This document shows, piece by piece, positions 12,173-57,146 of a DNA stretch of 64,000 bases (its first letter is position 1; each line of letters starts with the position of its first letter). The position numbers were made by a program, and so were the translations under genes. Below the pieces are notes generated by a model. That model saw only the letters and a list, made by a program, of their open reading frames with translations. It did no database searches and had not been told where the DNA came from. Source of the stretch: an uncultured Bdellovibrionales bacterium (GTDB taxonomy: Bacteria > Patescibacteriota > Minisyncoccia > Moranbacterales > GWC2-37-73); the NCBI GenBank assembly GCA_964484505.1, contig CAZAFB010000003.1, positions 37,044 through 101,043 on the forward strand, read 5' to 3'.

Positions 12173-12635
12173 AACACTGCTAAGTGAAAAATTGAGGCGT
12201 GGGAGATGTTAACTGACATCGACCGCGCCTTTTATTTTGCAAAGAAATTTCTTGAATTTCTTTGCACGCGGACAGATGCGGACGAGACGCAGAATTACGC
12301 GGAAAAATATCAAAACCGATTCGAATCTACGAATATCCGCAAATAAACTAAAAATGCAAAATACTTCGATACTCGAAAGTATCAAAGTATTTGACCAATT
12401 TATTTTTGAAGAAATTTTTTGATAAAAAAACAAAGCCATATGGCCTTGTCCTTATGTGCCGCGGGAGAGACATCTCACTCGCTCTGACTTTCAGTCTGAG
12501 CTCTTTGAAAACCCACGGTTTTCAAGACTTTCCTTCACGGGAAAACTCAGGTTTTCCCGACCCCTTTCCTGGTTCGAGTCTCCAAAGAAATAAAATTTAA
12601 AAGCCAACTATAAATAGTTGGCTTTTAAATTTCAG

Positions 12636-41288: not shown

Positions 41289-41401
41289 AATATCTTTCAG
41301 CACAGTGTGGAAAGGAAAGGGGTCGGGAAAACCTGGGTTTTCCCGTGGCGGAAGTACTGAAACCGCTGGGTTTCAGGGAGCGAAGCGACTCCACAGTGGG
41401 C
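41279..41401. repeat. Hairpin-rich insert at the 3' end of rpsI, bounded by the 13-bp direct repeats CTCCACAGTGGGC
   Basis: Direct repeats at 41266-41278 and 41389-41401. Between them lie GGGAAAACCTGGGTTTTCCC and CTGAAACCGCTGGGTTTCAG hairpins. The 38-bp core recurs at 12533-12570 in inverted orientation. Confidence 0.55.
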
Positions 41402-41496
41402 GAAGCGTTAGGATACGAATTTTCGCGAATTGGGAAACGAATGTTCACGAATCGCGAATTTCACGAATACTCAGCAATACCAAGATTTATATACAA

Positions 41497-54897: not shown

Positions 54898-55305
54898 ATG
54901 AAAAGAGTTCTTGTTTTCGGCACGTTCGACATTTTCCACGAGGGACATCGTGATTTTTTGCGGCAGGCAAGAAAGTACGGCGATTTTTTGTGCGCCGTGG
55001 TGGCGCGCGATGCTACGGTGGTTGAAGTGAAAGGCATTCCGCCGCAAAATGACGAACAAATCAGACTTGCCACTTTGAAAAACAGTGGCTTGGTTGATGA
55101 AGTGATGTTGGGAAGTTTGGATGATAAATATGAAGTGATAAAAAAATATGCCCCGGATGTGATTTGTCTTGGTTATGATCAGAAATTTTTTATAGATAAT
55201 TTGCGAGGCAAACTAGATAAATTGGGCTTGCAAAATACGAAAATCATAAAATTGAAACCGTATCATCCAGAGGAATATAAATCTTCAAAATTAAGAAATC
55301 ATTGA
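54898..55305 (+). CDS. Cytidylyltransferase-like nucleotidyltransferase (HxGH superfamily)
   Basis: GTFDIFHEGH matches the (H/T)xGH nucleotidyltransferase motif. 135 aa. Confidence 0.6.
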   Translation: MKRVLVFGTFDIFHEGHRDFLRQARKYGDFLCAVVARDATVVEVKGIPPQNDEQIRLATLKNSGLVDEVMLGSLDDKYEVIKKYAPDVICLGYDQKFFIDNLRGKLDKLGLQNTKIIKLKPYHPEEYKSSKLRNH

Positions 55306-55466
55306 GAAGCGACTCTAATACGCGAATGCGTCACCCTAATGACTCGAATGCAAAATACGCATAATCTGCAAGACAAATGTGCGCGTACTTAAATGCTTTT
55401 ATGCTTGTATGATTGTATGTTTCATAAAAAGTGAAATATGAAAAAATTTTCTTTGTAGTATATGAC

Positions 55467-55603
55467 AGGTTCGTAGTTCAGTGGCAGAGCAGCATCCCGG
55501 GTGAAATGAAGAGTGGTTGATGGACAAAAAGGGGGAATTTAGATTGTCGAACAACCTCTCCGTGTGGGAAGCTACGTCGCTGGTTCGATTCCAGCCGAAC
55601 CAA
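55467..55603 (+). tRNA. tRNA-like gene interrupted by an insertion of about 70 nt in the anticodon region (intron-containing tRNA or disrupted pseudo-tRNA)
   Basis: Canonical 5' half (acceptor AGGTTCG, TA, D-arm GTTC-AGTGGCA-GAGC, A, GCATC) and canonical 3' half (GAAGC, var TACGTC, T-arm GCTGG-TTCGATT-CCAGC, acceptor CGAACCA, discriminator A). About 71 nt lie between the anticodon-stem halves. Confidence 0.4.
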
Positions 55604-55814
55604 CAATTTTAAACGGCATTCTTGCAGGGAGCCGTTTTTTGGCATAAAATAAGGATGTATATTCACCCCGTTAAATAATCCATAAATTCTTTCCAGGAAT
55701 ATATGGATTAAGATTTGATTGACGGGGCGCTGTATTCGTGTTTAAAATATTTTTAAAATTTATTTTTATAAGTTGCTTTCTTTTATAGAAATCAAATCTT
55801 ATTTAACAGGGTAA

Positions 55815-57146
55815 ATGTTAGACATCAAATTTATCAGGGAAAACAAGGAAAAAATCATGGAAGCTGCGATCAGGAAAAACATTGACCTGAACGTGGAAGC
55901 GCTTTTGGAAATTGACGCGCAAAGAGTTGCCTTGATGCAAGAAATCGAAGAACTTAATTCGCTCAAAAATGACATCAATGATTTGATCAAGCAATCGAAG
56001 GACGAAAGTGAGCGCGCAGAAATCATTGAAAAGGGTAAGGAAATAAAAGCAAAATTAGAAGAAAAAGAACCGCGCTACAAAGAAGTGAAACAAATGTTTG
56101 ACACGTTCATGGTGCAAGTGCCAAACATTATTTCTGAAGACACGCCAATTGGCAGGGGAGAGGAAGAAAATGTTGAAGTTGAAAAATGGGGCGAAGTTCC
56201 AAATTTTAATTTTACGCCAAAAGATCATATCCAGCTCGGAAAAGATTTGGACGTGTTGGATTTGGAAAAGGGTGCTAAAATTGCCGGATATCGGGGGTAT
56301 TATGTAAAGAACGAAGGCGTTTCTTTGATGATGGCGCTGATGATGTATGCCTTGAACAAGATGATAGAGAGGGGCTACACGCCGATGATTCCGCCGACAT
56401 TGGTAAAAGGATTCACCTTGTTCGGCACGGGATATTTCAAAGGATCTGAATATGATCCCAAGGATGACAATGTCTATCAGCTTGCCTCACGCGACGAAGA
56501 AGCTGACGGGAAAGAAACAAAAGAACGAAAATTTTTGGTGGGAACGGCGGAGCCTTCACTTTTGGCATATTTTTCAGACGAAGTTTTAAAAGAAGATCAA
56601 TTGCCGATCAAGGTTGCTGGATATTCGCAGTGCTATCGCTCCGAGATCGGTACATATGGCAAAGATACACGTGGCTTCTATCGTGTGCATGAATTTATGA
56701 AAGTGGAACAAGTCGTGCTGATGGCGGCGGATGAAAAGGAGTCGATCAAAATGCATGATGATATGTTTGCGATCTCCAAAGAGATTCATCAGGAACTTGG
56801 CTTGCCATATCGCGCTTTGCAAATTTGCTCAGGAGACATGTCTGCTGGAAAATATCGTGCGTTTGATATTGAAGCTTGGATGCCGGGACTCAATCGTTGG
56901 GGCGAAACGGGATCAGCTTCAAACTTTTTGGATTGGCAGGCGCGTCGTTTGAATGTGAAATATGTGGACAAAGATGGTAATCGCAAGCATGTCTATATGC
57001 TTAACAATACCGTGCTTCCTTCGCCGCGTCCGTTCATCGCGATTTTGGAAAACTTTCAACAAGCCGACGGCTCGGTTGTTATTCCGGAAGTTTTGAGGAA
57101 ATATATGCCGGGAGGGATGGAAAGAATTTTACCTAAAAAAGCCTAG
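55815..57146 (+). CDS. serS: Seryl-tRNA synthetase
   Basis: N-terminal coiled-coil arm and class II core. Confidence 0.9.
   Translation: MLDIKFIRENKEKIMEAAIRKNIDLNVEALLEIDAQRVALMQEIEELNSLKNDINDLIKQSKDESERAEIIEKGKEIKAKLEEKEPRYKEVKQMFDTFMVQVPNIISEDTPIGRGEEENVEVEKWGEVPNFNFTPKDHIQLGKDLDVLDLEKGAKIAGYRGYYVKNEGVSLMMALMMYALNKMIERGYTPMIPPTLVKGFTLFGTGYFKGSEYDPKDDNVYQLASRDEEADGKETKERKFLVGTAEPSLLAYFSDEVLKEDQLPIKVAGYSQCYRSEIGTYGKDTRGFYRVHEFMKVEQVVLMAADEKESIKMHDDMFAISKEIHQELGLPYRALQICSGDMSAGKYRAFDIEAWMPGLNRWGETGSASNFLDWQARRLNVKYVDKDGNRKHVYMLNNTVLPSPRPFIAILENFQQADGSVVIPEVLRKYMPGGMERILPKKA

Follow-up and report, generated by a model that had tools for sequence, protein, structure and literature searches.

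The window, which is the whole stretch of 64,000 nucleotides analysed here, contains a gene for a tRNA-like RNA in which a long helical rod stands in place of the anticodon loop. The comparison of its homologues indicates that the gene is real and far beyond a chance match. The explanation that we favour, with moderate confidence, is a non-decoding, lineage-restricted, tRNA-derived small RNA of about 137-143 nt, which would be transcribed independently and would work as a natural tRNA scaffold. No anticodon is present in any copy, and, as there is no anticodon loop, the RNA is probably unable to decode. The RNA appears to be undescribed, i.e., a tRNA-like non-coding RNA without a match to a known family.

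Anatomy of the gene and its transcription signals

The gene lies on the + strand at 55467..55603, from position 1 to the discriminator, and is defined by its cloverleaf fold, covariance-model matches, covariation, and the match of the Rfam tRNA model to an orthologue (L020). The original prediction had described a tRNA-like 5' half (acceptor strand, D arm, and GCATC) and a 3' half running from GAAGC to the discriminator A, and direct reading of the sequence bears out every element. On the + strand, the 5' half comprises the acceptor strand AGGTTCG (55467-55473), T8 and A9 (55474-55475), the D arm GTTC-AGTGGCA-GAGC (55476-55490), A at position 26 (55491), and GCATC, the 5' half of the anticodon stem (55492-55496). 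The 3' half comprises GAAGC, which completes the anticodon stem (55568-55572), a 6-nt variable loop TACGTC (55573-55578), the T arm GCTGG-TTCGATT-CCAGC (55579-55595), the 3' acceptor strand CGAACCA (55596-55602), and the discriminator A (55603). The segment between GCATC and GAAGC, which had been put at about 71 nt, is exactly 71 nt long (55497-55567, +).

The minimum-energy fold of the window copy is a cloverleaf with an irregular rod of 81 nt as its anticodon arm. This long irregular hairpin, which takes the place of the anticodon stem-loop (55492..55572, +), has the same architecture in the individual folds of 16 copies. In the window copy, it consists of a proximal 7-bp helix GCATCCC/GGGAAGC, a bulge, a 4-5-bp helix, internal loops, a distal helix GGTTG/CAACC, and a variable tip. 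The bulge is single-stranded and conserved; it reads GGGTGAA in the window (55499..55505, +) and GGGUGAU in most other copies. Both of the pairings that had been foreseen were recovered, namely, the hairpin of the segment itself (GGTTGATGGAC...GTCGAACAACC at 55515-55556, +, within the rod) and the pairing of the flanks GCATCCC and GGGAAGC, the latter with one A.A mismatch. This mismatch and the A.A at 1:72 are weaknesses of the window copy, the fold energy of which is by itself not exceptional (z = -1.55).

Upstream of the gene, a promoter-like -35 element that matches the consensus, TGAAAT (55432..55437, +), lies 18 nt upstream of a promoter-like extended -10 element, TGTAGTAT (55454..55461, +). 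The -10 element has the form TGTA(G/A)TAT or a close variant of it in most of 15 copies, and TGAAAT or a one-base variant is found at the same upstream distance in most of them, with a looser match in the others. In most of the 15 copies, 5-7 nt separate the end of the pair as a whole (TGAAAT, 17-18 nt, TGTA(G/A)TAT) from position 1; thus, the transcript would start at or next to position 1. Downstream, we read an intrinsic-terminator-like hairpin, CGGC...GCCG followed by T6 (55612..55640, +), which was missed by a simple scan because its loop is 13 nt long. A hairpin with a T-run occurs within about 50 nt of the 3' end in 15/15 copies compared. Judged by its signals, the RNA is a transcription unit of its own and would be independently transcribed.

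At the 3' terminus, all copies have C at position 74 and most have A at position 76, with a variable base at position 75 between them. Five copies encode CCA; in the window copy, CAA stands in the CCA position directly 3' of the discriminator (55604-55606, +). The tRNA-Lys gene in the window also has no encoded CCA. As neither gene encodes it, post-transcriptional addition of CCA would be expected.

The upstream neighbour is a CTP_transf_like gene (135 aa; 54898..55305, +) and the downstream neighbour is serS, the gene for seryl-tRNA synthetase (SerRS; 443 aa; 55815..57146, +), both assigned by Pfam matches. Most serS genes have a separate promoter, TTGCAA...TAAAAT, directly upstream. The serS leader (55664-55817) has a fold of its own, with a z-score of -4.3. 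In this leader, TTATTTAACAGGGT (55799-55812), which immediately precedes the ATG, is the pairing partner of CACCCCGTTAAATAA (55664-55678), so that the ribosome-binding site of serS would be sequestered in the predicted fold. A similar leader was found in L004, L006 (the 3' arm and central part only), L011 (two copies), and L026. The element is common to genomes with SerRS proteins that are only 37% identical, is absent from most other serS leaders, and has no Rfam match; a translational switch and a mobile repeat of palindromic form are both possible.

Homologues, distribution, and covariation

Three metagenome contigs with the same SerRS protein carry a near-identical RNA, and in one of them a D-stem pair is changed from U-G to C-G. 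Among species-representative genomes, the SerRS relatives at 71-82% identity belong to Candidatus Moranbacteria and other Parcubacteria, which places the window in a bacterium of the candidate phyla radiation (CPR). A first pattern scan of the genome collection gave zero matches; the window variant GTAGTT is rare. With BLAST followed by a covariance model, the full-length RNA, insert included, was found in L004, L006, L007, L014, L017, L018, L019, and L020. It is also present in the metagenome loci L025, L026, L036, L068, L077 (3'-truncated), and L099, and in L155-L157. The covariance model was built from 5 copies and gave full-length matches at 68-158 bits in further loci. After the removal of duplicates, there were 16 distinct homologous sequences (15 in alignment A5, and L155), drawn from genomes of Moranbacteria and from metagenome contigs.

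In all 16 distinct copies with flank sequence, the RNA is located upstream of serS on the same strand, and the distance to serS is between 135 nt and 2 kb in every copy with downstream flank sequence. In the lineage with the 443-aa SerRS, the RNA always lies between the CTP_transf_like gene and serS. In the case of L026, L036, and L155, the SerRS is the ordinary 428-aa Patescibacteria type, 35-37% identical to the window SerRS, and the upstream gene is different, yet the RNA is still found just upstream of serS. This constant site may be functional or may reflect only conserved gene order. As a separate observation, two very different SerRS types occur at the same locus in Moranbacteria (L022/L023 versus L026/L155), which suggests replacement of the gene in place. 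In the scan of species-representative genomes, the nearest matches of the 443-aa (window-type) SerRS outside the group were from Firmicutes, at 36-38% identity.

The family has a narrow distribution and is dispensable. In twelve related loci, no copy was found up to about 4 kb from serS, even when the filters were switched off; one of these loci, L158, retains the CTP_transf_like-serS arrangement. The copy in L016 (genome bin GW2011_GWC2_37_8, at about 1925) is without 36 nt that are present in the otherwise identical metagenome contig L068 (9395-9360). The missing part comprises the 5' acceptor strand, the D arm, and the start of the arm, and its loss is either a population deletion variant or an assembly artefact. 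L017 has an extra 45-nt hairpin inside the D loop (1554-1598), which contains TTTGTCGAC, resembling the TTGTCGA motif of the main arm; L068, its closest relative, is without this insertion. From the patchy distribution, the L016 deletion, and the L017 insertion, it follows that the RNA is dispensable or is not always intact.

Base pairs were counted on 16 distinct rows, namely, the 15 sequences of alignment A5 (15 of the 16 distinct homologues) and the 3'-truncated L077, which was handled as an extra row; L155 was left out. Standard pairs were formed in 94.6% of the cells, compared with 24-46% when the partners were slid by 1-3 columns. Fifteen of the 35 pairs change on both sides, compared with 1-4 in the slid controls, in counts that ignore phylogeny, and none of 500 shuffles reached the observed pairing value. 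In the acceptor stem, the pair 2:71 is G-C or A-U and the pair 5:68 is C-G, U-A or U.G; the pair 1:72 also covaries (U.G, C-G or U-A), with A.A in three rows. The D-stem pair 13:22 covaries, the T stem is 100% paired with three covarying pairs, and helices 3-6 of the rod are 77-96% paired, with 9 of their pairs changing on both sides. The nucleotides of the L-shape are retained: U8, A14, the invariant G18 and G19, the T-loop UUCRAWU (found in all copies), and a C (C48) that closes the variable loop. The molecule has the parts of a canonical tRNA body, i.e., a 7-bp acceptor stem, a D arm, a T arm of the UUCRANY type, and U8/A14/G18/G19/Y48, with stems that covary. The pattern of change indicates that this body (acceptor stem, D arm, T arm, and L-shape nucleotides) is under selection.

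From the body outward, the individual folds of the arm show a helix of 7-9 bp starting at position 27, a 6-7-nt bulge on the 5' strand with no opposing bases, a helix of 4-5 bp, small internal loops, a helix of 5-8 bp around UUG...CAA, and a variable tip. The GGGUGA of the bulge is invariant in every copy listed, with L014 having a gap at that site in the CM alignment. The hexamer is followed by U in most copies; the window clade has A there, and a single copy has C. The mean pairwise identity is 0.74 in the tRNA body, 0.74 in the proximal arm, and 0.48 in the distal arm, which is still a helix; the identity of the distal arm to the window copy is 42-57% across orthologues and 26% in the most divergent one, L068. 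The insert ranges from 71 to 81 nt. Comparison of the orthologues, which had been suggested as a check of the original prediction, placed the insert at the identical position in all 16, in a structure that covaries. The intergenic flanks are far less conserved than the gene and can barely be aligned between clades. With its compensatory changes and its conservation above that of the flanks, the gene behaves as one for a functional, structured non-coding RNA, the pair statistics being ones that ignore phylogeny.

Candidate function and alternative readings

In the mechanism that we propose for the scaffold, the rod of about 80 nt would permanently replace the anticodon loop. The tRNA body would be a substrate for the machinery that matures and stabilises tRNAs, by end trimming and CCA addition, and, like that of an engineered tRNA scaffold, would give the RNA its fold, maturation, and stability. 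The conserved GGGUGA(U) bulge sits 7-9 bp down the former anticodon stem, and the proximal arm and this exposed bulge would form the working surface that binds a partner. As the bulge reads as a Shine-Dalgarno-like sequence, the candidate partner that we prefer is the 3' tail of 16S rRNA (UCACCU); a protein is just as possible as a partner. GGGUGA(U) is the complement of (A)UCACCU in this tail and corresponds to the 3' part of an extended Shine-Dalgarno sequence. UCACCU is the tail sequence generally established for 16S rRNA, and the pairing with it is a prediction. Few genes in the window use a Shine-Dalgarno sequence (GGAGG or GGAGGTG), and most are without such a signal; as some do have GGAGG or GGAGGTG, the 16S tail is presumably canonical. 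The match to the tail is 6-7 nt long and was found after several other ideas had been tried, and the pairing of the bulge with 16S rRNA is to be taken as a lead, not as a result.

Three other interpretations of the arm were rejected. For a K-turn or box C/D motif in GUGAUG...CUGA, the GA dinucleotides are not adjacent to helices either way and CUGA is not conserved. For a small reading frame or a tmRNA-like resume codon after the bulge, four A5 copies have AUA instead of AUG and the peptides show no conservation. Neither the terminal loop nor AUCAU on the 3' strand pairs with the bulge in a conserved way.

If the proposal holds, the RNA is the natural counterpart of the engineered tRNA scaffold, and it comes from CPR bacteria, the translation apparatus of which is already known to be unusual. 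To our knowledge, bacterial non-decoding reuses of the tRNA fold are few; tmRNA and YrlA are the main examples, and each of them revealed a new pathway. If the bulge truly binds the 16S rRNA tail or a dedicated protein, this would be a new regulatory mechanism. A further reading, which we regard as unlikely, is a translation-related RNA of a new kind that is specific to the CPR. Such a CCA-tailed tRNA mimic would dock on the 16S tail through GGGUGA and occupy or regulate ribosomes, or would carry an amino acid for non-ribosomal transfer.

No consistent aminoacylation identity could be assigned. Position 73 is U or A, and the pair 1:72 is variable and usually weak. The pair 3:70 is G-C in 13 of the 15 full-length rows and G.U in the other two, G3.U70 being confined to the L026/L036/L155 sub-lineage. 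U73 is found in Gly and Cys tRNAs, and G3.U70 is an Ala feature; the hallmarks of tRNA-Ser, a long variable arm and G73, are absent. The closest ordinary tRNA body among 452 tRNAs compared is that of a tRNA(CAU) in the L033 array, the T arm of which is identical to that of the window copy; as a pointer to the parent tRNA, this is suggestive only. L033 (1-1944) is a 1.9-kb contig made up almost entirely of 15 tandem tRNA genes.

It seems to us quite improbable that the locus encodes a true tRNA that decodes codons and contains a bacterial intron of a new kind, the rod being removed by some activity to leave a normal anticodon loop. The tRNA body is intact, and tRNA detectors respond to it in part. 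The tRNA and intron covariance models, named as a check in the original prediction, gave a divided answer. With the Rfam tRNA model, the L020 copy is matched over its whole length at 33.9 bits (gathering score 29), 73 nt taking the place of the 7-nt anticodon loop, but the window copy was not accepted, and no intron family was matched. At the window site, neither ARAGORN in default mode nor Rfam at the gathering threshold made a call; Rfam at E <= 10 returned only noise for this copy, with the tRNA model RF00005 falling below the E = 10 reporting level. No Rfam 15 family reaches its threshold for the tRNA-like RNA, and we found no description of such an RNA in the searchable literature.

ARAGORN in intron mode calls a tRNA in 16 of the 17 copies, and GUU or GUC is obtained in seven copies from the conserved 3' strand YGUYUGA. 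The second insertion of L017, in the D loop, is also reminiscent of archaeal tRNAs with multiple introns. Against this, the intron-mode calls amount to 11 anticodons for 9 amino acids among close orthologues, including Arg(ccg), Leu(gag), Asn(gtt), Asp(gtc), Ile(gat), Arg(tct), Ile(aat), Pro(agg), Thr(cgt), and Val(cac), and place the insert mostly after position 32, not at 37/38; orthologous tRNAs do not switch identity in this way. A canonical anticodon arm has a 5-bp stem and a 7-nt loop with U33 and a conserved anticodon; in the family, the loop has given way to 71-81 nt, C, A or G but never U is found at position 33, and no triplet is conserved on either side of the insert. The GGG that had been offered as a possible anticodon turned out to be part of the invariant GGGUGA bulge.

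Nor does the rod resemble a known intron. The archaeal bulge-helix-bulge has two 3-nt bulges on opposite strands with a 4-bp helix between them, and its 3'-strand bulge adjoins the anticodon stem. The family has a single 6-7-nt bulge with nothing opposite, on the 5' strand and proximal to the only helix of 4-5 bp; the 5' strand is the wrong one for such a motif. A group I intron has a catalytic core of P1-P9 and is usually 200 nt or more in length. The insert, a single rod of 71-81 nt, is far below this size, with no Intron_gpI match even at E <= 10 and no intron or ribozyme family in Rfam; the original prediction had judged it too short for a group I intron, and it is indeed about one third of the minimum size. 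Moreover, the proximal part of the insert is as conserved as the exons, and the gene is absent near serS in many close relatives. The earlier suggestion of a non-canonical tRNA intron therefore fails in the comparison of orthologues, which have no U33, 11 anticodons, and no bulge-helix-bulge. If the rod were spliced, it would be a new kind of bacterial tRNA intron. In practice, tRNA finders in intron mode give such genes arbitrary anticodons and would corrupt the tRNA inventories of these genomes.

Other tRNA-like genes with additional segments were observed on unrelated metagenome contigs, with 40-80 extra nt between the D and T arms: L027 (18-159), L050 (1983-2111), L054 (2145-2278), L075 (3314-3447), L076 (8276-8416), L082 (56-211), L110 (165-304), and L126 (155-292). 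ARAGORN in default mode made no call on any of these eight loci. L082 resembles a tRNA-Tyr(GUA) with an anticodon-loop intron, the site of which is 37/38 by our reading and after position 35 by ARAGORN; in the other seven, a long extra arm comes after an anticodon-like hairpin.

We give an equally low probability to a tRNA gene that was inactivated by a small mobile element, or to a pseudogene that is decaying otherwise and is retained only by linkage. The A.A at 1:72 and the A.A stem mismatch of the window copy, the 36-nt deletion in L016, the extra insertion in L017, and the patchy distribution would all suit such a history. A miniature mobile element is recognised by several copies per genome, by a site that is occupied in some relatives and empty in others, and by terminal repeats or target duplication; the insert is single-copy in the 64-kb window and lies at a constant site in the 16 orthologues, including lineages with a 37%-identical SerRS. 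Outside the family, its signature motif gave just two matches, both unrelated and due to chance. All helices show compensatory changes, promoter and terminator have been preserved, and the intergenic DNA on either side is much less conserved than the gene. The disruption by a mini-element that the original prediction had considered is contradicted by the single copy in the window, the common insertion site, and the covarying helix. An origin from phage was dismissed, as the scan of viral contigs with a looser pattern gave 11 matches, all by chance in coding DNA, and none of them fits the covariance model.

Very unlikely, in our judgement, is a main role at the DNA level, either as a tRNA-like attachment site or as a chimera made by integrative elements that target the 3' ends of tRNA genes. 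L019, L025, L026, L099, and L155 have a second copy of the final 13-18 nt of the gene, in many cases together with the terminator, at 115-330 nt downstream; the two copies flank a small insert, the core of which also follows the true tRNA-Leu gene in the window. However, the window copy and 9 others are without a downstream repeat of the 3' end, and for a DNA site there would be no need of a conserved promoter or of base changes that compensate each other in the rod and in the acceptor and D stems.

The direct repeats of the 3' end of the tRNA-like gene are located at L019 1983-2310, L099 about 1-250, L026 1465-1650, and L155 3669-3870; in L099, the whole unit (gene end and downstream repeat) is tandemly repeated. 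Such repeats are the signature expected of site-specific integration into the 3' end of a tRNA gene. The repeated element itself is about 110-130 nt long and occurs twice in the window, at 12445-12575 (-) and 41300-41405 (+), as well as at L025 5620-5741 (-), L026 1492-1623 (-), and L155 3700-3835 (+). It follows an upstream gene (and, at tRNA and tRNA-like sites, the terminator of this gene), and its 5' end is the reverse complement of the last bases of that gene. Next comes a core of two hairpins, GGTCGGGAAAACCTGRGTTTTCCCGTG and then ...TGAAACCGNTGGGTTTCA..., after which the final 13-18 nt of the upstream gene recur in direct orientation; most sites also have a terminator after this repeat. 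Of the two window copies, one follows tRNA-Leu and the other a protein gene; the copies in the relatives follow the tRNA-like RNA. At the protein-gene site, the repeated end re-encodes the C-terminal PQWAKR with synonymous codons. The element has no Rfam match and may be a small integrative or mobile element.

The least probable reading is a cis- or trans-acting regulator of serS, i.e., a tRNA mimic that titrates SerRS or controls serS expression: the position upstream of serS on the same strand holds even in the lineage with the different SerRS, and the window GGGUGAA is complementary to UUCACCC of the serS leader, but that leader element is missing in most genomes with the RNA and the pairing, which we rejected, is without covariation (L026 has a U.U mismatch), and the hallmarks of tRNA-Ser are lacking. 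In addition, a cis-acting leader is unlikely because of the terminator of the RNA, the separate serS promoter, and, in five lineages, intervening genes, which extend for up to 2 kb before serS. We only infer a link of the RNA to SerRS.

Comparison with known RNAs

The tRNA-like RNA fails a defining feature of each of tmRNA, YrlA, and intron-bearing pre-tRNAs. Like tmRNA, it retains an acceptor stem and a T arm, with a long irregular helix where the anticodon arm would be, and the tmRNA gene, too, is a favoured integration site. However, it has a complete D arm, whereas tmRNA has no D stem; G3.U70, a feature of tmRNA, is found in only one sub-lineage of the family; and the RNA has neither a tag reading frame nor pseudoknots and is about 140 nt long, compared with about 360 nt for tmRNA. 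The tmRNA search of ARAGORN gave no match at the window gene or its orthologues.

YrlA is likewise non-decoding and combines a tRNA-like module of D, T, and acceptor arms with a long protein-binding stem that replaces the anticodon arm. YrlA is topologically permuted, with a capped acceptor stem and with both termini in the long stem, whereas the family RNA ends in the acceptor stem. In addition, YrlA is linked to rsr (Ro60), whereas no rsr was found among the Pfam-scanned neighbours of the family RNA, and there was no Rfam match.

Intron-containing pre-tRNAs, with the bulge-helix-bulge in Archaea or group I introns in Bacteria, share the intact body, the tens of nucleotides in the anticodon arm, and an exon-proximal helix that runs on into the insert. 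In the family, by contrast, U33, a conserved anticodon, the 3-4-3 bulge-helix-bulge, and the group I core are all absent, and the insert is as conserved as the body.

In engineered tRNA scaffolds, a recombinant RNA is placed in the anticodon stem, and the tRNA body gives folding, processing, and resistance to nucleases. The architecture is identical to that of the family, with the cargo RNA replacing the anticodon loop; the difference is that the scaffolds are man-made constructs, whereas the tRNA-like RNA is the product of a natural, conserved gene.
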